Origin: Candidatus Aenigmatarchaeota archaeon
Lineage (GTDB): Archaea; Aenigmatarchaeota; Aenigmatarchaeia; QMZP01; QMZT01
Assembly (NCBI GenBank): GCA_041489155.1
Contig: JBGPQP010000004.1
Span: 31,030 to 95,029, forward strand
Reading direction: 5' to 3'
DNA length: 64,000 nucleotides
Shown: piece after piece, positions 28,137-36,860 of the stretch
Layout of the letters: the number at the start of each line of letters is the position of its first letter
Numbering within the stretch: position 1 is the first letter of the stretch
Made by a program: the position numbers and the translations under genes
The notes under the pieces: model-generated
Seen by the model: the letters and a program-made list of their open reading frames with translations, nothing else
Databases searched by the model: none
What the model was told of the DNA's origin: nothing

Positions 28137-30209
28137 TCAGCGTAATTTTCTTATCATGATTTTATTGTACAGCCTTTTCAGCCTTATGTATTCTTCGCCG
28201 GCCAGTTTCCTTTCCTCGTAAGAAAGCGAATTGTAAATATGATTGGCCTTTTCATACGCATCCTTAGCGCCGTCCATATCGGTTTCAACCAATGACTCTC
28301 CTATTCTCAAAAAGCCGCGCATATTATCAATCTTATCTTTGGCATCTGCGGTTCTGTCCCTCCGTTGCGGCGGACCTTCTTCATTGTAGTCAGCGTATCC
28401 AATCTCTTTCCTGAAAATAGCTTTTAGGTTGTTTTTCTGCTCCTCCAGATGGGCAGCCCTCAGCAATTTCGATATCTTTTTATTGTAAAATGCAATCATA
28501 GATAAGGCAATCAGCACGACGATGATTATTGAAACTATTACTGTGCTCCGGCTCAGTTCCTTGAAATATATTTTTTCCATCAGCTGTTCGAGCAGCTTTT
28601 TTGCTTCCAGGAGAGAGACATACGCATCGATGAATCTGTTCTCCTTTTTTAGCGTAATGCTTCTGAAAACCATCTCGTTCACAGTTTTAAGCACATCTTT
28701 TTCTTCCGAATATGCTTCTGCCTTAATCATGTCAGAACTCATGTCTTGCATGATTCTGAAATATTCAGCATTCAGAACTAATTCGATGGTCTCGGTCACG
28801 TAGTCGTATCCGTTCATTGCCTGTTTTGATTTTTCCATGGTTCCGTTGTAATCACCGGAGGCAAACATTTTCATTGCGGCATCGAGAGCAGAATCAAAGT
28901 CGGACATGTTTTTTTCAGAGCCTGGCACTTCCAATCCGAAGTTATTTGTCCAATTCAACATCGCATGCGTCTCTGATTTTCTTCTGACAGCCTCTTCGAG
29001 CATGAATTTCGCGCGGTTTTTTGTGCTCCTTGAAACCCCTAGCGCAACCACTTTCGGCACTTCTGATGTGCCGGACTTGGCAACAAGCGAAAGGCTGTAT
29101 AACTGCTCGATTGCGCTGTCCGGAAGCTTGATCGCAACAAAAAAATTCTTTGATTCACCAGTTTTGATGTCCTGCTGTGTGGGGGCTACAAGTACCCAGT
29201 TGGAGGTAATACCATACACCTGAAGGGAGGTGTTATATGCCGTGGAATTGCCCGTGTTTTTGACCTCAACGCTGAATTTCAATTCCTCTCCTGGGAACGC
29301 TTCGAGATAGTTCGGCGATATTATTGCAAAATCGGGCCTGGGCAGTTCCTGCGGGATAATTGCGCCCGAAGTGCCTCCGCCGCCATTTCTTGGCGGCGGC
29401 GAAGAAAGAACATAAAATAGCGGGCTGACGGCTCGTTTTATGTTTTCGTCGTTGGGATACTTTAGGGCAGCGATGAAATAGTATGAACCCGTATTCTCAT
29501 TTACCGCAACGCTCTTGGTGTAATTCAGCCATTCTGCTATTGCTTTCCACGCGCATCCGTAGTTGTTGTAAGAAGGACCGCAAAGATATGCAGGATCACT
29601 GTTTATGCAGTAACAAATCTGGACATCGGTTGTTTCAAGGGGGGTAATCTTGTGTACCGAAATGTCCGCTTCGATGACCTGTCCTTGGTAAAGTGCTGAG
29701 GGCCTTATGCCCGTGATCTCTATATCATCGATTGGATTTGTTGTGTTGACGTGGATCTGCAAGCTGGTGCTGTTCAAGCGATTGTCGTCAAGCGAGTATG
29801 AATAGAAAGTAATGTCATAAGTCCCTCCGTCATATCCGCTGCTTGGAGGAACATAGATGCGCAAGGTGACATTGCGGTCGCCGAAACCGGGCAGCAGGAA
29901 TGCATAGTTGTCCTGGTAATAACTCATGCCTCCGCTCTGGTTCTGGAATTTAACGAAGCCGTTGGTATCGCTCTTGTTCAGGTATACGAGGACGTCAAGC
30001 GGATGGTTCTGGTAAACGGTCAGGTTCAGATAAAAGTAGTAGTCTTCAGGCACAAGTACGTTGCCATACTGCGGGAAAACGCCAAGCATACCCTTGACAG
30101 TGGCGTTCATATTGGTACTGCCGCCGGCGTACTGGGCCGATGCATTTGATGCCAGCAGCAAATAGAAAACTGTGAAGCAAAGAATACTAAGGGAACTCCT
30201 CATGTACAA
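28137..30209 (-). CDS. Secreted, C-terminally membrane-anchored surface protein (N-terminal donor-strand-like motif, Ig/CARDB-like domains, helical stalk, TM)
   Basis: Signal peptide ending ASA; YAGGSTNMNATVKG; VEVKNTGN CARDB-like segment; TM near residue 560. Confidence 0.85.
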   Translation of the reverse strand: MYMRSSLSILCFTVFYLLLASNASAQYAGGSTNMNATVKGMLGVFPQYGNVLVPEDYYFYLNLTVYQNHPLDVLVYLNKSDTNGFVKFQNQSGGMSYYQDNYAFLLPGFGDRNVTLRIYVPPSSGYDGGTYDITFYSYSLDDNRLNSTSLQIHVNTTNPIDDIEITGIRPSALYQGQVIEADISVHKITPLETTDVQICYCINSDPAYLCGPSYNNYGCAWKAIAEWLNYTKSVAVNENTGSYYFIAALKYPNDENIKRAVSPLFYVLSSPPPRNGGGGTSGAIIPQELPRPDFAIISPNYLEAFPGEELKFSVEVKNTGNSTAYNTSLQVYGITSNWVLVAPTQQDIKTGESKNFFVAIKLPDSAIEQLYSLSLVAKSGTSEVPKVVALGVSRSTKNRAKFMLEEAVRRKSETHAMLNWTNNFGLEVPGSEKNMSDFDSALDAAMKMFASGDYNGTMEKSKQAMNGYDYVTETIELVLNAEYFRIMQDMSSDMIKAEAYSEEKDVLKTVNEMVFRSITLKKENRFIDAYVSLLEAKKLLEQLMEKIYFKELSRSTVIVSIIIVVLIALSMIAFYNKKISKLLRAAHLEEQKNNLKAIFRKEIGYADYNEEGPPQRRDRTADAKDKIDNMRGFLRIGESLVETDMDGAKDAYEKANHIYNSLSYEERKLAGEEYIRLKRLYNKIMIRKLR

Positions 30210-30234
30210 ATGATTGAATCGTTTCCATATAAAA

Positions 30235-30807
30235 CTACTTTCCGGATTTCTTTTTATTGCGCTTTTTCAAAACGAAGATTGCAACCGCCAGCGCCACGAT
30301 TATCAATACGGCTGCCGAAAAAATAACGGGCAATATGCCAATGGGCTCCACTTGCACAGAAAATTCATATGGCTCCTTTATCGTGGCTACCCCTATTTTT
30401 ATGCTGTTAAGGATTGCACCATTGTAGACGACCTTTTCGGGGTTAATCTGGTAAATGATGGGCGCAGAAATTTCAAGGCACACCACCTTGCAAGATGGGT
30501 TGTCTGGGGACATGCACTTCTCGGAAATGCAAGATCGCCTCAAGTTCGTTTCCTGCGGGCAGTCAATCGGCGTTAGAGTAAAATCGTTAGGCGATATCTT
30601 TGTAGTGAGGGTGCTTACATCACCCGTGGTTCCTATATGATACGTCCCGCCTTCCTGGGTGGCGTAAATCCAGACGTCGCAGAAGTTGGTTTTGCTTCCG
30701 GATGGAAGTGTAATGCCGCCCTGTCCAAGAGAAATGCCTGCCTCAGCATTTGGCAAAAGCGATATTAAAAACAAAACGGCCACGAGTGTCGCTAAATAAA
30801 GTCTCAT
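30235..30807 (-). CDS. Secreted Cys-rich protein with C-terminal TM anchor
   Basis: Signal peptide ending AEA; beta-rich body; TM followed by KKRNKKK. Confidence 0.8.
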   Translation of the reverse strand: MRLYLATLVAVLFLISLLPNAEAGISLGQGGITLPSGSKTNFCDVWIYATQEGGTYHIGTTGDVSTLTTKISPNDFTLTPIDCPQETNLRRSCISEKCMSPDNPSCKVVCLEISAPIIYQINPEKVVYNGAILNSIKIGVATIKEPYEFSVQVEPIGILPVIFSAAVLIIVALAVAIFVLKKRNKKKSGK

Positions 30808-30926
30808 GTGATTTAATTGTGTTATTGTTTAAAAAACTTATCACTTGAAAGGACCTGCTGGAAATCCTCGTGATAGCGAGAATACCTGATCACAAAAAGC
30901 TGTAAGTTGTGTGCTGCGTGAGAGAC

Positions 30927-31538
30927 TTAAGCGCACGTTCCGCAGTTGCTCTCAGAGGTTCCTTCTTGTCTTCCGCACCAACAGTATCCGGTTACATATA
31001 CGCCTGGCTGCTGGCCGGCCGGTACACTAAGGAAGTATGTTGCCCAGCAGTTCGAATTAATCGAGCTGCTTTCGCACGTTTCCATTCCAGACCACCCGTT
31101 GGTCAGCGATATCGCAGTGCCGTTGCTGAAAATGTTGGTGCCGTTGTTCGCGGTGCTGTTTGCATGATAAGTGACGTTGCCTATGCCGATGTAATAACTT
31201 TCGGTCGTGAGGTTGGTCCTGTTGCTCGCATGTGAGAAATTGATGCTCACCGTAGATGAAGCGTCGACCGTGAGGTTAAAGGTCGAGCCTCCGTTGGCGG
31301 CGTTGTTGTTGCAACTCGCGTTGTTGCCGTTGCTGCTCTGATCCTGGGTGGCGAATGTAATGCCGTTCGTGAGGCAATTTGAGATTAAAATCGACACCCA
31401 TCCGCGAACCGTCACGTTCATCGTTGTGCTGCCGGTCGCGTAGTCAGCCGAGTCTCCCAAAGGAGTGAAAACGCTTAACGTAAGCGCAAATAAGCCGAAT
31501 ACTATGAATATTCCCAACGCCCCAATTCCAACTCTCAT
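30927..31538 (-). CDS. Secreted beta-rich protein, candidate major pilin subunit
   Basis: Signal peptide; YATGSTTMNVTVRG; domain homologous to the adhesin C-terminus; own TATA at ~31561. Confidence 0.8.
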   Translation of the reverse strand: MRVGIGALGIFIVFGLFALTLSVFTPLGDSADYATGSTTMNVTVRGWVSILISNCLTNGITFATQDQSSNGNNASCNNNAANGGSTFNLTVDASSTVSINFSHASNRTNLTTESYYIGIGNVTYHANSTANNGTNIFSNGTAISLTNGWSGMETCESSSINSNCWATYFLSVPAGQQPGVYVTGYCWCGRQEGTSESNCGTCA

Positions 31539-31597
31539 AAATATTTATTAAGGCACTAGAATATAAATGTTTAAACATTTTTATTTTAAACTTCTTC

Positions 31598-34500
31598 CTA
31601 CCCCCTTTCTTCTTTTATGTAAATCGTTGTGTTGTACGAGTTCGGGTCCTGTCCCTGCGGAACCGACAGCCAGAAATACAGAGTAGTTATGTTGCTCTGG
31701 CCCGCGGGAACGTTCGACCTTATCAACTGATAGCCAGTTGAAAGCTGTATGACCTGGGAATCTGGCGACGTAGAATTGACAGTTACGTTACCTATGCCTA
31801 TGACCGAACTCCCGTTTACCAGGTCACCTGTCGCCATTATCGAAACGTTGACTGTCCCGCAGCCAGCGGTGGACAAATCGGTTATGTTGTAGTTCCCGTT
31901 GTCCACCGCGGAAACGTTAACCTGATCCGGGTCCTGCTCAGCGAAGCGAATGCCTGCCTCAAGCTGCGAAGTCATTGCGAAATCAACGTTGCAGGCGCTC
32001 ACGCTCAAATTCAGAACAGTCGTGTTCGAATTAATCCTTCCGGAAGAATCGTTCACGTACGTGGTGTTGTAAAAGAACGTCCCGGCCGAATCGCCCACGT
32101 TAACATTCACCGAATACCAGCCGTCGCCAGCCGAACCTGCGCAGCTGCCTGTGTCGGACATCGTTATATTGAATATGCTCCCGTTGGATTGCGTTACCGT
32201 AGTCCAGACAGCATTTACCCCAAAATTATCAGAAACTCCTGAAACGTTCAGGCATACAATTGTATTCATGCCCACAGAGCCTGAGTTGTTGATATGTTTG
32301 CTTCCTATTTGTGGGTTTGTTAAATCTACCGTGAACGTCCTGTTCACGTTGGACCAGTCTGCCTGATTAATTGTATCATTACACCACGCATCCCACTTCC
32401 ATGTCCCTTCTGGTATGCCGGAGACGGTCACATTCCACCAACCGTTGTTCGTGGGGCTTGAATTGGTCTGGTTCGCGTGCCAGCCTGACCAGTTGCCGTA
32501 GAGCTTGAGCGTACTCACGCCTATATTATCAGAACACTTCAAATCGAAAACTATTGAGCCGTCGGAGTCGTTATAATAGGTGACAGGATTCGTTCCCAGG
32601 GAGGCGGTTGGGTCGGCATCACTTTCTTCTTCTATCGTTATGTTGTGTTCCGAACCCAGCGTCAGGGTGAAGTTCAACTCTCCGTTAGCCTGCGATGTGA
32701 GATTGCAGTTCGCATCATTACAATCATTTCCGTCCATCTTTGCGGAATAGTTAATTGTCGTGTTTGGCATCTGCACTGTCAGATTTGTTGAGCCTGTCCC
32801 GTCCAAATAAATAGTTGCGTTATTTGTATCAGATGCAGGCGAGGTTGCTGATAAAATAAGGACATCGGTGTTTGTGTTGTTCTTTATTTGAGGGGTTGTT
32901 GTGTACAAGTAAGATATGTTTACATAAGAAGGATTTGTTTGATTAGTATACCATGTTGGATGCGTTCTCAATTTAACAGCCAGCCGGTACCATGATTTTA
33001 CATAATCCATTGACCAGTTCACAGTAAAGTTTCTGTTAATCCATGTATAGACAGTTACAATGGGGACACTTTGATTATAATCGCTGTTACTATCATAAGT
33101 AGTATATCTTTCAACACCTGTATAACTATCTGATTCAGCTTTATACCAAAAAGACATGTTCATATCTTTAATAAAACTGGGGACAGTTACCGTTAAATCA
33201 TCAGGAGATGCTTGAACCCAACCACTGCAGCTCCAATATTCTTCTGTTGTTGGGGGCGTTAAAAGCAAAGATTTTGCATCGGTGCCAATACCTGTTGGCT
33301 GACCGTGCGTTGGGTTAACATCCCTGAAATAGTAATCCACTTTTGCTTCTGTTGTATTAACAAGAAACGCATAGTTTCTTATTACATTATTGTTGTTGGT
33401 GGGTTCTGTTACATTTATTAGCAAAGAATATAACCCAAGCCTTGTTGCCGTAAAATTCCCTGTAATGCTATTCCCGCTTTTTGACATACTAACTGTTTCA
33501 TAAGGCCTTGTTGTTATGTTGTATGCGCAATTATCGCAGGCTCCTCCACCTAGATAATACAGAGATATATTAAATCCAACCAAGTCATTAACATTAGGCG
33601 TTTGATTAGTTGTTGAAACCGTAATCATGGTGTTATTAATATTATGTATAAATTTATTATTGGAATAGATATTGTTTGAACTACTCATATCATATACATT
33701 ATTTGATATAGTATTCCCAGTTAGATGGGTATTAGACGAAGACTGAAGATAAATACCATACCGAATGTTTGAATCGGCAGTGTTATTCGTAAGGTTGTTA
33801 TCATAAGACGAAGAATCAATATAAATCCCGGCATAATAATTCGAATTAGCAGTGTTATTCGTAAGGGTGTTATTAGATGAACCCTGAAGATAAATACCAG
33901 AGCCCATGGACCAAGTGTTCGAATTGGCAGTGTTATTCGTAAGGGTGTTATTAGATGAAGAAGAAAGATAAATACCATGAGAGTTCATGCTCAAATTGAC
34001 AGTGTTATTCGCAAGGGTATTAGATGAAGAATAAAGAAAAATACCCGCGTGGACACTCGAACTAATAATATTATTGGCTATAATGTTATTATCAGAATAA
34101 GAATAAAATGTAAGTCCACGATAATTATTTGTTATAGTATTTCCTCTAATTTCTGTTCCTGTTGCATTAATCTCCAAACCATACTTACCGTCTGTGTTAG
34201 ACCATCCAGCCTCGCTCAGCAAGGAATTCTTCATCGCAAATGTTGAGCCAGAATCAACTTTAAAGAAGAATTCACGTGTTGTATTGACTGCTGTGATATT
34301 GCTTGCATCACTTGTTGTTGATGCGTCATCATCATTGTCATAGATGTAGAAAGCCCCTCCTGACTGTACTTTGATTCCGTACTGGCCATCACTAGAAGAA
34401 TTCATTTTAGGGGTGACGTTCCTGAATGTGAGATTGCCGCCGTTCTGTATTGTAAGATTGCCAGTCATTGTCATTATTCTATTGCTGCACATCTGTGTAT

Positions 34501-36772
34501 TGCTAATAATCCAATCATCACCACTGCCAGGATATGCACAGGTTGTATTAATACTGAATGAAACATTTGTTATGCTATTAAGATTTCCCAATGTGTCATT
34601 TGCAAACAAGTATAATGTGTGCGTTCCTTCTGATGTGTCGAATGTTGTGTTTGCGCAGTTTGCCAATGTCGTGTTGGCGCCTTTGTCAAGGTTGTACCAG
34701 CACTTATCAACGCCTGTGTAATCCGTGACAGTGTAATTCAAGTTTATTGACAGATTTCCGTATGTTCTGTTTTTTGGAGCAACTATTGTGATGCTTGGCG
34801 GTATGTTATCCGCTTGCACTTGCAGAGAGCCAGTATTATCTAGGTTTGCTGAACCTGCCTCTATGTAGGTTGATGTTCCTACTGCACATCCTTCAACTGT
34901 CCAGTTAATAGTGCCAGCAGGATTGCTTGCGGGAAGGATAGAGCAAGAAACGTTGCTGGCGTAAATAGCGCAATAGGAAGCCATGGTGCCAGTCGTTTGT
35001 ATCGCTATAATTCGTATCTGGTTTGAACCGCATGCATTAGTTATTGTCGCGCCACCTGAAACTGTTAAGGTGATTGTTCCGCTCCATGGGTCGCCAGTTT
35101 CATAGTGCACAACCGAGAAGGTTGTGTTCTGGCCTAAGCTTATTGGTGAAGTGACAACAGTAAATGATGAATCATAAAGCCTTGCTGGCGCGTCGCTTGC
35201 AATCATCCATTGTCTCGACTCTTTCCAATTGCCGATTTCAAGCGGCCCGAGGATGAAGAGAGAGGGGGAGATGTCGGGCGCATCGAATTCGTAACCGATT
35301 TCATAGGTTTCGCCCGGGGTCAGCTTCTTGTCCCATGACAGAATCTTGGCATCCCCCGCGTCTGTGACCGTCATACCTTCATTAGGCGTTATTTCAAAGC
35401 CTGAAGGCACGTATTCGTTTATCAGGCCTTCGTAATCCTTGTTAGCCTTTATGACGAAAATCATACTGTATTTCGCCGGCGGATATATTCTTGTCGGACC
35501 ATTTCTTGCGACGTCGAAATCCGTTCGCTTTTTCACCTCGAATGCGTCTGTCATGCTCCTTACGCCGTTCATTGTAATAGCTGTCAGATTCATGGTATAT
35601 GTACCTTCCTTGTTCACGATGTAAGAGGCATAGTAATCGGGAAGGTTGGTCACTCCGTAGAGTTCGCATTCAGGCGAAACGCTTATAGTGCCATCGGACG
35701 TTCCCAAGGTTGTTGTTACGCCTTGCGAATCTGTTATTTGAAGCGTTACGTCGGCGTTGCAGACCATGTGACCTTGGTCGTCCAGAACGGCCATTCCGAT
35801 GAAGGCCTGCTCGTTTTCGAGATAAATCGATTTGTGGGTGTTTATGGCGAGCACGCCCCAGAGGAATTCCCCTTCTTTTTCGTATGTTTCATTCCCCTCC
35901 TTTACCTCCATCCTTATCTTGTACAAACCCGCCCTGAACGCCCTTCCTTTCGAAAGCTCTATTTCATACTCCCCACTGCCAACCTTCAAAACATCCGCTT
36001 TTACCTCAAGCAATTTCCGGTCAGGGCCGTAAACAAAAACATTCAAAACCTCCGGCCATGTTCCCTCCTCGATTATCTTTCCCTGCTCGGAAAATACATT
36101 TTTCGAGATCAGCCTGAATCTCGGTTTTTCGTTCATCCCGAATCTCTCCTTTACTGGCGAGAATCCCACAACTTTTTCCAAGAATAACCTTGGGAATGTT
36201 TCGTTGGTTTCCGTTACGTTCAGGTCGTGTTCAAGGAATGACCTGTTCTCGCTTGTTTTGTTAAACTCCTCTTCAAGAACAGTCCTATTCATAGCGGTTT
36301 CATTTTTCAGGAATGTCCTGTTTTCTGCCAACCCAGAAATCAGTTCCTCTCTCGTGACGTTCGATTCAACGCAGTCCCTGCATGTGCCCCACAAATATTT
36401 TCCCGTGGTTTCGTAGCCTTCACTCACATTATCGAAGGTTAAATCAGGAACATATTCAAGAATTTGGACGATTGTCACGCTCGCGAAGAGCACTAGCAAG
36501 GCAAGAATGATAAAACCGGCGTTGATGCTGCACGAGGATTTGGCCCATGCACCTCTGGGGAACCTGTGGCCGTTTTTCGTTTTCGGATAATGCAGCTTCG
36601 CCTTGCCTACGTCCCTCACGATAATCTTGCCCGTTGCCTGAAGGACGACGAGATATTTAGAGGCAGTCATCCTGTTTATGGCTAGCGCGCTGGCTATTTC
36701 CTCTATTGTAAGCCCGTAATCGTGTTTTGCGACAAGTTTCAGAATTTTTTCCTCAGTGCCGTTTCCGCCCAT
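31598..36772 (-). CDS. Giant surface adhesin: N-terminal wHTH, TM/signal segment, Ig-like domains, NosD/CASH beta-helix repeats, C-terminal pilin-like domain
   Basis: LTIEEIASALAINRMTASKYL HTH; GIYLxxSSNNTLTNNTANSN repeats; many NxS/T sequons. Confidence 0.88.
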   Translation of the reverse strand: MGGNGTEEKILKLVAKHDYGLTIEEIASALAINRMTASKYLVVLQATGKIIVRDVGKAKLHYPKTKNGHRFPRGAWAKSSCSINAGFIILALLVLFASVTIVQILEYVPDLTFDNVSEGYETTGKYLWGTCRDCVESNVTREELISGLAENRTFLKNETAMNRTVLEEEFNKTSENRSFLEHDLNVTETNETFPRLFLEKVVGFSPVKERFGMNEKPRFRLISKNVFSEQGKIIEEGTWPEVLNVFVYGPDRKLLEVKADVLKVGSGEYEIELSKGRAFRAGLYKIRMEVKEGNETYEKEGEFLWGVLAINTHKSIYLENEQAFIGMAVLDDQGHMVCNADVTLQITDSQGVTTTLGTSDGTISVSPECELYGVTNLPDYYASYIVNKEGTYTMNLTAITMNGVRSMTDAFEVKKRTDFDVARNGPTRIYPPAKYSMIFVIKANKDYEGLINEYVPSGFEITPNEGMTVTDAGDAKILSWDKKLTPGETYEIGYEFDAPDISPSLFILGPLEIGNWKESRQWMIASDAPARLYDSSFTVVTSPISLGQNTTFSVVHYETGDPWSGTITLTVSGGATITNACGSNQIRIIAIQTTGTMASYCAIYASNVSCSILPASNPAGTINWTVEGCAVGTSTYIEAGSANLDNTGSLQVQADNIPPSITIVAPKNRTYGNLSINLNYTVTDYTGVDKCWYNLDKGANTTLANCANTTFDTSEGTHTLYLFANDTLGNLNSITNVSFSINTTCAYPGSGDDWIISNTQMCSNRIMTMTGNLTIQNGGNLTFRNVTPKMNSSSDGQYGIKVQSGGAFYIYDNDDDASTTSDASNITAVNTTREFFFKVDSGSTFAMKNSLLSEAGWSNTDGKYGLEINATGTEIRGNTITNNYRGLTFYSYSDNNIIANNIISSSVHAGIFLYSSSNTLANNTVNLSMNSHGIYLSSSSNNTLTNNTANSNTWSMGSGIYLQGSSNNTLTNNTANSNYYAGIYIDSSSYDNNLTNNTADSNIRYGIYLQSSSNTHLTGNTISNNVYDMSSSNNIYSNNKFIHNINNTMITVSTTNQTPNVNDLVGFNISLYYLGGGACDNCAYNITTRPYETVSMSKSGNSITGNFTATRLGLYSLLINVTEPTNNNNVIRNYAFLVNTTEAKVDYYFRDVNPTHGQPTGIGTDAKSLLLTPPTTEEYWSCSGWVQASPDDLTVTVPSFIKDMNMSFWYKAESDSYTGVERYTTYDSNSDYNQSVPIVTVYTWINRNFTVNWSMDYVKSWYRLAVKLRTHPTWYTNQTNPSYVNISYLYTTTPQIKNNTNTDVLILSATSPASDTNNATIYLDGTGSTNLTVQMPNTTINYSAKMDGNDCNDANCNLTSQANGELNFTLTLGSEHNITIEEESDADPTASLGTNPVTYYNDSDGSIVFDLKCSDNIGVSTLKLYGNWSGWHANQTNSSPTNNGWWNVTVSGIPEGTWKWDAWCNDTINQADWSNVNRTFTVDLTNPQIGSKHINNSGSVGMNTIVCLNVSGVSDNFGVNAVWTTVTQSNGSIFNITMSDTGSCAGSAGDGWYSVNVNVGDSAGTFFYNTTYVNDSSGRINSNTTVLNLSVSACNVDFAMTSQLEAGIRFAEQDPDQVNVSAVDNGNYNITDLSTAGCGTVNVSIMATGDLVNGSSVIGIGNVTVNSTSPDSQVIQLSTGYQLIRSNVPAGQSNITTLYFWLSVPQGQDPNSYNTTIYIKEERG
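33740..34035 (-). repeat. Imperfect tandem coding repeats (beta-helix coils)
   Basis: Recurrent GCAGTGTTATTCGTAAGG(G)TGTTATTAGATGA units. Confidence 0.8.
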
Positions 36773-36833
36773 CAGAAACCTCGCCAGCCAAAAACCATGT
36801 TTAATTATTTATACGAGGTCATATAAATTTTTT

Positions 36834-36860
36834 AATCATTGATGATTATCATTGATGATT
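36834..36860. promoter_or_regulatory. Tandem palindromic operator next to the adhesin TATA box
   Basis: AATCAT-TG-ATGATT followed by ATCAT-TG-ATGATT; minus-strand TTTATAT at 36821-36827. Confidence 0.65.

Follow-up and report, generated by a model that had tools for sequence, protein, structure and literature searches.

The 64,000-nucleotide stretch of DNA analyzed here (hereafter the window; contig JBGPQP010000004.1 of assembly GCA_041489155.1, which we call contig C4) comes from a Candidatus Aenigmatarchaeota archaeon, a DPANN archaeon whose genome of 1.13 Mb is 90% complete. Between the genes for ribosomal protein L11 (rpl11) and Spt5 (spt5) the window contains a cluster of four genes, all on the minus strand, encoding proteins of 1724, 203, 190, and 690 amino acids (aa), which we refer to as the adhesin, the pilin, the accessory protein, and the base. 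The cluster is real and conserved. We propose, and consider it likely, that its four genes build an usher-free, chaperone-guided fiber on the archaeal membrane by donor-strand exchange. The proposal is based on the architecture and conservation of the cluster, the folds of its products, and the distribution among them of a short N-terminal strand.

The four proteins and the strand shared by two of them

The putative major pilin (203 aa; 30927..31538, minus strand) has a signal peptide, an N-terminal donor strand, and an immunoglobulin (Ig)-like body, together with eight conserved cysteines and ten sequons. Its donor strand, residues 33-46, is encoded at 31401-31442 (minus strand). The putative base or terminator (690 aa; 28137..30209, minus strand), which comprises a signal peptide, a donor strand, Ig-like domains, a helical stalk, a transmembrane (TM) helix, and a cytoplasmic tail of ~110 aa, carries a similar strand at 30090-30131 (minus strand). 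A preliminary description of this DNA had pointed out that the two proteins share a 14-residue strand after their signal peptides. Indeed, both 14-mers translate exactly at these coordinates and are identical at 10 of 14 positions, their score of 63 is reached by none of 300 whole-protein shuffles and none of 20,000 N-terminal shuffles, and beyond the 14-mer the pilin and the base have no other significant similarity. In the pilin strand, T38, M40, V42, R45, and G46 show no variation among 31 close homologues, and the N-terminal strand and the cysteines are kept in 30 close homologues (51-64%). For the base, 22 orthologues were found and one N-terminally truncated row was excluded from the alignment; the strand follows the signal peptide in 21 of the 21 that remain, with a G and a T invariant and three more positions at least 90% conserved (n=21). 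A position-specific scoring matrix for the strand, built from 99 distant pilins (consensus T-[TV]-S-N-[VA]-T-[IV]), distinguishes the strand from shuffles (p<0.05) for 30 of 32 pilins and 15 of 32 base N-termini, compared with 3 of 32 internal segments of the base and none of 27 N-termini of the accessory protein. The strand scores are also higher for cognate than for non-cognate combinations of pilin and base, at 17.2 versus 12.2 across 32 loci, 15.5 versus 12.0 over 17 hand-drawn clades (permutation p 0.0013), and 14.2 versus 11.7 (p 0.013) when the clade of the window is excluded. The 14-mer is conserved between orthologous gene pairs and tracks the cognate pilin. The base itself likely starts at the ATG two codons into the open reading frame (ORF), which gives 688 aa as on record. 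A single late hydrophobic helix can be read from its sequence at about residues 557-578, a CARDB-type Ig domain is found in it, and the pilin profile gives no match to it, in agreement with the earlier statement that this protein has a TM anchor and no recognizable pilin domain.

The putative tip adhesin (1724 aa; 31598..36772, minus strand) is made up of a winged helix, a signal/TM helix, Ig-like modules, a right-handed beta-helix, and a C-terminal pilin-like acceptor domain. It contains 82 N-glycosylation sequons, and the GC content of its gene is 0.37 in the middle versus 0.48-0.50 at the ends. Its orthologues have both ends in common and lengths that vary from 521 to 1892 aa, as expected for a variable payload. 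The acceptor domain (about residues 1595-1724; 31601..31990, minus strand) is without a conserved donor strand. That the pilin is homologous to this end of the adhesin, as first proposed from a few shared motifs, is now supported by 31% identity over 151 columns (pairwise E 6e-5), by a Smith-Waterman score of 106 that none of 300 shuffles reaches, and by a 128-sequence pilin profile, which finds the adhesin at E 1.3e-16 among the ORFs of this genome and matches two others there, the pilin itself and, on contig C26, a distant paralogue. The segment ahead of the pilin-like domain has a mean score of -3.6 on the strand matrix in 32 adhesins versus 13.2 in pilins, consistent with the suggestion that the adhesin is an acceptor only. 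The window's own copy is exceptional at 7.7; the same segment scores -10.2, -1.1, and -1.5 in three close orthologues, and we therefore take it to be the strand that ends the Ig module before this domain.

In the AlphaFold2 model of the pilin monomer (128 sequences; mean predicted local distance difference test, pLDDT, 91.7) the protein is an Ig-like sandwich in which DSSP assigns no strand to residues 24-49, with a pLDDT of 81-93 for residues 31-50. Residues 24-49 being unpaired, the model lacks the N-terminal strand bound in cis that a self-complete pilin would show. In a Foldseek search with the pilin, nine of the first ten rows are donor-strand fibers or assembly complexes (TLP-1, Csu, CfaB, cannula, CupE, and type 1 pilus; E 1.7e-3 to 2e-2), and VIA gives Z scores of 7.6-7.7 for TLP-1, 6.9 for Csu, 6.4 for AbpA, 6.3 for Saci_0406, and 5.3 for TasA, where the TLP-1 alignment spans pilin residues 31-192 and includes the strand. 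The modelled fold is weakly indicative, being compatible with a donor-strand pilin and not proof of one. No family was found for the pilin in Pfam, PHROGs, or NCBIfam, where the Pfam touches in its alignment stay below the cut-off (DUF4402 in 3 and WxLIP_PGBD in 2 of 128 sequences), and a PDB sequence search with its profile returned nothing at E<0.01. In the ESM Atlas, three archaeal clusters match the pilin at 0.93-0.94, and a lead to WxL, seen in 20% of members, stands at 0.84. In a mean-field covariation analysis (188 rows, effective number of sequences 137), T38 paired with W187 of the last strand ranks 4 of 11,807 pairs.

The pilin probably has its own, leaderless promoter, judging from a TATA-like box (31558..31569, minus strand) ~25 nucleotides ahead of its ATG; by eye, such a box also precedes most of 12 orthologous pilins, and its conservation suggests that the pilin is synthesized in excess. 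Some pilin homologues are longer, at 270-300 aa, and bear a charged, coiled-coil-like N-terminal extension ahead of the hydrophobic helix (P0106, P0112, P0115, P0122, P0134, P0136, P0145, P0146, P0149, P0164, and P0168). In many pilins and bases of loci L076-L094 an ITG-x-A-type motif follows the hydrophobic helix and precedes the donor strand, and this is perhaps a lineage-specific processing site.

The fourth protein, the putative membrane-anchored chaperone (190 aa; 30235..30807, minus strand), has a signal peptide, one PapD-like sandwich, a long final hairpin, a C-terminal TM helix, and a basic tail. Its model (pLDDT 92.4) shows a single extracellular domain, a seven-strand sandwich that ends in the long hairpin (126-138, 141-154), followed by a TM helix (helix 159-188). 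The top Foldseek match is FaeE, a fimbrial chaperone (E 1.3e-5), and FimC, Caf1M, and SfaE come after it among other PapD-like domains, and a wide VIA search places WxLIP 9I1Y of Enterococcus faecium first (Z 10.5, root-mean-square deviation 2.4, 104 aligned residues, 17% identity). Most likely, then, going by the model, the accessory protein folds like a one-domain PapD-type chaperone, so that the assembly factor of the preliminary description can be specified as a membrane-anchored, PapD-like chaperone. No family was found for it in Pfam, PHROGs, or NCBIfam, nothing at E<0.01 in a PDB sequence search with its profile, and nothing above 0.79 in the ESM Atlas. DUF916 and DUF3324 have no match in the 190-aa protein or in 24 accessory-type proteins among 28 neighbors scanned; of the phylum's 371 genomes, two have PF06030 above the cut-off, the present genome not being one of them, and the two best PF06030 matches were rejected as orthologues of the accessory protein.

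Conservation of the cluster and comparison with known fibers

The order pilin, accessory protein, base is found in 15 of 21 close loci, several of which are near-duplicates; five of the others end ~0.5 kb or less from the pilin, and one (L044) has no match. The same rpl11/spt5 site houses the cluster in relatives, with gene order kept, and the cluster, at first labeled a surface island, is not unique to this lineage. In all 11 close loci that were inspected (L025 and L032 among them) a gene that we take from its motifs to be of the MinD/ParA type lies on the opposite strand between the pilin and the accessory protein; the window is without it. Such a gene also stands beside several distant clusters (L018, L078, L080, and L114), and this ATPase might position the fiber. 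Single loci contain other insertions, named here from motifs: a secreted repeat protein (L031:2119-4014), a secreted subtilisin-like protease (L042:1245-3980), and an AAA ATPase (L032:8362-9573).

A whole-library search with the pilin gave 290 representatives at E<=0.001, which are either short proteins with a signal peptide, the strand, and the domain or long proteins that end in the domain, many of the latter matching only from profile position 47, past the strand. Of the 371 genomes of the phylum, 110 have matches to a deeper pilin profile, and 40 of 45 stretches fetched around profile matches contain the pilin domain. In the usual layout of these distant loci, a long protein is followed by one to three pilins, then by a protein of 170-280 aa whose C-terminus forms a TM helix, and lastly by a TM protein of 400-800 aa. 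The accessory profile matches 25 of the 40 loci, from which 22 of its own sequences were drawn, and the accessory protein of the window is homologous to the type in the distant loci, signal and TM helix included (hhalign 98%, E 1.7e-13). In a tree of 48 pilin-type domains, which has one long row and leaves 12 of its 45 inner branches open, the adhesin domains stand mostly apart from the pilins. A taxon name was obtained for one of 20 distant representatives, a Methanomethylicota bin, so that the range may extend beyond the phylum. A divergent layout, in L083, L097, and L099-L101, has two facing pilin-accessory pairs, a base, and an 1800-2200-aa TM protein. Locus L137 (G025:C55:1084-4368) looks bacterial, with small pilin-like genes, a two-domain chaperone-like gene, and a barrel-like gene; the archaeal pilin profile matches these pilin-like genes (E 2.8e-9 when roughly a dozen proteins are searched), and the locus is a lead to bacterial relatives, possibly on a stray contig.

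Both the layout and the predicted roles can be compared with known systems. The Elr/WxL pilus of Enterococcus faecalis likewise has a tip adhesin with a C-terminal acceptor and a variable payload, an N-terminal donor strand on the pilin, a membrane-anchored PapD-like chaperone, no usher, and a base with a donor strand and without an acceptor (here, without a pilin-profile match), the parts being the tip ElrA, the shaft ElrD, the TM chaperone ElrE, and the donor-only ElrB (bioRxiv 10.64898/2026.10.17.759780). The archaeal cluster differs in that its chaperone has one domain and not the DUF916/DUF3324 tandem, its base is a 690-aa multi-domain TM protein with a long tail, without LPxTG and without a sortase, and its donor consensus alternates T, S/M, V/A, and I/V and ends in V/I, not F, as against [ST]-x-[GA]-x-[VI]-x-F. 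The WxL domain PF13731 is present in none of the 128 aligned pilins and none of the 371 genomes, with a positive Lactococcus control. The layout had been said to recall WxL/Csc clusters, and the resemblance to Elr/WxL in how the system would work stands, but membership in the WxL family fails by sequence and was rejected on these four differences in WxL domain, chaperone, sortase, and donor consensus.

The Pam pilus of candidate phyla radiation (CPR) bacteria is also from an epibiont lineage and has TM-anchored PapD-like chaperones (PamC/D), an acceptor-only tip (PamT), a terminator with an N-terminal strand and a C-terminal TM helix (PamR), and no trans-envelope machinery; compared by description, its pilins are two-domain proteins of 39-55 kDa with an internal donor linker, whereas the archaeal pilin has one domain and an N-terminal strand, the archaeal tip is a giant adhesin, and the archaeal chaperone has one domain (PMC13278184). 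Chaperone-usher pili (Csu, CFA/I, type 1, Caf1, and F4) have an incomplete Ig fold with an N-terminal extension, which the archaeal pilin may share, and a PapD-like chaperone domain, while the archaeal chaperone is membrane-bound and has one domain. A chaperone-usher pilus was rejected, as the usher PF00577 has no match in this 90% complete genome (E. coli control positive); nor has the sortase PF04203, which extends the earlier remark that usher, sortase, and pilus ATPase are missing from the locus. A type IV pilus was rejected because the locus has neither an ATPase nor a prepilin-type gene.

The archaeal strand-donation filaments (AbpA bundling pili, Saci_0406 threads, cannulae, and Tafi) are similar in being archaeal, in the proposed strand donation, and in a sandwich fold that may be related (Z 5.3-6.4), and Tafi likewise combines a tip with a membrane anchor; however, the Tafi anchor is an acceptor and not a donor, and these filaments are described as chaperone-free, with twin-arginine translocation (Tat) signals and a dedicated peptidase that are absent here (PMC12337348, PMC11821415). 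The environmental fibrils TLP-1a/b are the top Foldseek match (E 1.7e-3) and align over 142 residues, strand included, but are 236-237 aa long, with 10-11% identity, a root-mean-square deviation of about 5, and n+4 donation (PMC11494351); that the pilin is TLP-1 was rejected on this identity and the lack of a sequence match with the pilin profile.

Proposed assembly and competing explanations

We propose that all four proteins are exported by Sec, as their signal peptides suggest. The 190-aa protein, held by its C-terminal helix, would serve as the membrane chaperone and, given its fold, would lend its last PapD-like strand to the open groove of each new subunit. The adhesin would form the tip and the 203-aa pilin the shaft, and the donor-only, TM-held 690-aa protein would form the base. 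The swappable payload of the adhesin would be held off the cell, its most plausible targets being host cells or surfaces, and host attachment is suggested by the DPANN lifestyle together with this payload. Every binding step, the polymerization, the fiber length, and the function are what we infer. The roles of tip, shaft, and base assigned in the preliminary description would, by analogy, match the Elr/WxL and Pam models of 2026 preprints, and all four roles are shown or modelled for these two systems (bioRxiv 10.64898/2026.10.17.759780; PMC13278184).

Several observations weigh against this mechanism. The pilin has no Foldseek match at E<=0.001, its best fold matches have a middling Z of 7.6-7.8 that never gets to 8, and they tie with PapD-like and GH123 domains that are not pilins. 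The covariation is too thin to give a register, with 1.29 for parallel versus 1.05 for antiparallel pairing on the last strand. The WxLIP match of the accessory protein lies within 1 Z of YadV and of eukaryotic PapD-like domains, the latter being non-chaperones, and both the pilin and the accessory protein were modelled as monomers. The bases were chosen by position and shape, and 17 of 32 fail the strand test. The adhesin of the window is without a clear cleavage site after its hydrophobic helix (residues 84-104; 36461..36523, minus strand; read directly from the protein sequence), although we infer that this signal helix is cleaved. Finally, in 9 of the 40 loci there is an adhesin-type domain and no detected short pilin.

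The last point, together with the finding that most of these nine loci continue with a membrane protein and a base-like gene, would also suit a short tether, in which the same strand swap lets the base anchor the giant adhesin with no spacer at all or with one or a few pilins between them. The base and pilin strands of the window are near-identical, so that the base could terminate the chain at any time, but the pilin's own conserved TATA-like box, with the excess synthesis that it suggests, and the two to three pilin paralogues in many loci speak for a longer chain, and the profile may miss divergent pilins; on balance we regard the tether as rather unlikely. Somewhat less probable still is a chaperone-free strand-donation fiber of the kind formed by TasA, archaeal bundling pili, threads, cannulae, and Tafi, with the 190-aa protein as a structural anchor or nucleator. 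It would fit the chaperone independence ascribed to archaeal strand-donation filaments and the likeness of the pilin to AbpA, Saci_0406, and CanA (Z 5.3-6.4), and the accessory protein does have one domain where ElrE, PamC/D, and PapD have two, in a fold that is common. Against it, Foldseek ranks a fimbrial chaperone highest for the accessory protein, with much of its list made up of chaperones, the protein shares its long terminal hairpin and C-terminal TM helix with ElrE and PamC/D, and its N-terminus is not donor-like in any of 27 cases. The TasA system has a dedicated signal peptidase, SipW, and between spt5 and rpl11 there are just the four genes, none of a peptidase family and none like SipW or TafD.

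Two further explanations do without a free fiber or without strand exchange. If the adhesin helix stayed uncleaved, both ends would be membrane-held and the proteins would form arches or a surface mesh, as an S-layer-like scaffold or a membrane-tethered sensor. The winged helix ahead of a hydrophobic helix that lacks a clear signal peptidase site, and the 82 sequons, could be taken in this sense, but an alanine-type signal peptidase site ends the hydrophobic helix in five of five fused adhesin orthologues, the winged helix is a separate gene in four loci, and the adhesins of distant loci start with plain signal peptides, which makes this very unlikely. We give hardly any credence to the remaining explanation, that in each of the proteins the strand simply opens that protein's own fold or serves as a processing signal, and that the genes encode unrelated surface proteins: Thr/Asn/Val-rich strands are common in these proteins and the fold matches are middling, but the strand is unpaired in the pilin model, absent from the accessory and adhesin controls, and covaries with the cognate pilin, and gene order is kept across families.

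Regulation, genomic setting, and significance

At its N-terminus the adhesin carries a winged-helix domain (residues 7-52, HTH_11 E 1.2e-5; 36587..36754, minus strand), fused in frame to the signal helix; this fusion is seen in six loci. Upstream of the gene, a tandem 12-bp palindrome (36835..36859) lies directly upstream of a box at 36821-36833 that resembles a B recognition element (BRE) and TATA box, and is a candidate operator for the winged helix. The pattern derived from this palindrome occurs in at least two copies upstream of 9 of 10 genes of this winged-helix subfamily and of none of nine genes of two other winged-helix subfamilies, each of which has its own upstream palindromes. This confinement points to autoregulation, and the adhesin winged helix probably regulates the cluster through the promoter palindrome, as far as sequence patterns can tell. 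The winged-helix subfamilies with their palindromes would form a ready set of regulator-operator pairs. A more comprehensive reading, which we hold only tentatively and think more doubtful than not, would combine a chaperone-guided archaeal donor-strand pilus, with a minimal one-domain membrane chaperone, that has spread through a third of Aenigmatarchaeota genomes as a host-attachment fiber with swappable tips, and, in this family, a transcription factor borne by the tip on its signal peptide: once a tip is exported or cleaved, its winged helix would stay tethered to the membrane and, by being released or sequestered, would feed back on the promoter palindrome.

The stretch is covered by contigs of two sequencing runs from which this DNA may derive, with two single-letter differences inside it, at window positions 30429 (accessory codon 127) and 34410 (adhesin codon 788), which may be strain differences or assembly errors. 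At 33600-34000, near-identical beta-helix repeats interrupt the contigs of both runs, and one contig of one run skips 78 bases there; variation in repeat number is possible. Elsewhere in the genome there is one archaeosortase; archaeosortase anchoring of the base was ruled out because of the long cytoplasmic tail. A second look-alike cluster (C26:64-4877) encodes a 216-aa pilin-like protein (E 1e-5 with the pilin profile) and TM proteins of 396 and 827 aa, and is followed by genes that, from their motifs, we presume to resemble vWA and DUF58. A third (C17:2429-6479) has a stand-alone winged helix, a 522-aa secreted protein with a tail that is pilin-like by eye and gives no match with the pilin profile, and a 409-aa TM protein. 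More surface genes, at C17:10325-12575, also begin with a winged helix. At C13:1-11580 there is a second giant surface protein (>3860 aa), again with a winged helix fused ahead of the signal helix, that is 32% identical to adhesin residues 227-547.

In the open-licence literature we found no description of such a pilus in DPANN archaea, and passages of a paper on the Nanobdella surface mention only archaellum-like filaments. The archaeal version of an usher-free donor-strand pilus is therefore most likely new, the donor-strand, chaperone-guided design having so far been shown only in bacteria. If the chaperone-guided archaeal version is true, it would carry the usher-free pilus design of Elr and Pam into a second domain of life and add another epibiont radiation to it, because archaeal strand-donation filaments have been described as chaperone-free and because the WxL system is reported only from Bacillota among RefSeq genera (bioRxiv 10.64898/2026.10.17.759780). 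The product of the cluster is most likely a thin, adhesive fiber on the surface of a tiny symbiont-type archaeon. The cluster bears on the question of how DPANN archaea locate their hosts and hold on to them, and a conserved four-part, ATP-free fiber with a variable tip would name the proteins to study and the tip payloads to examine for host glycans.

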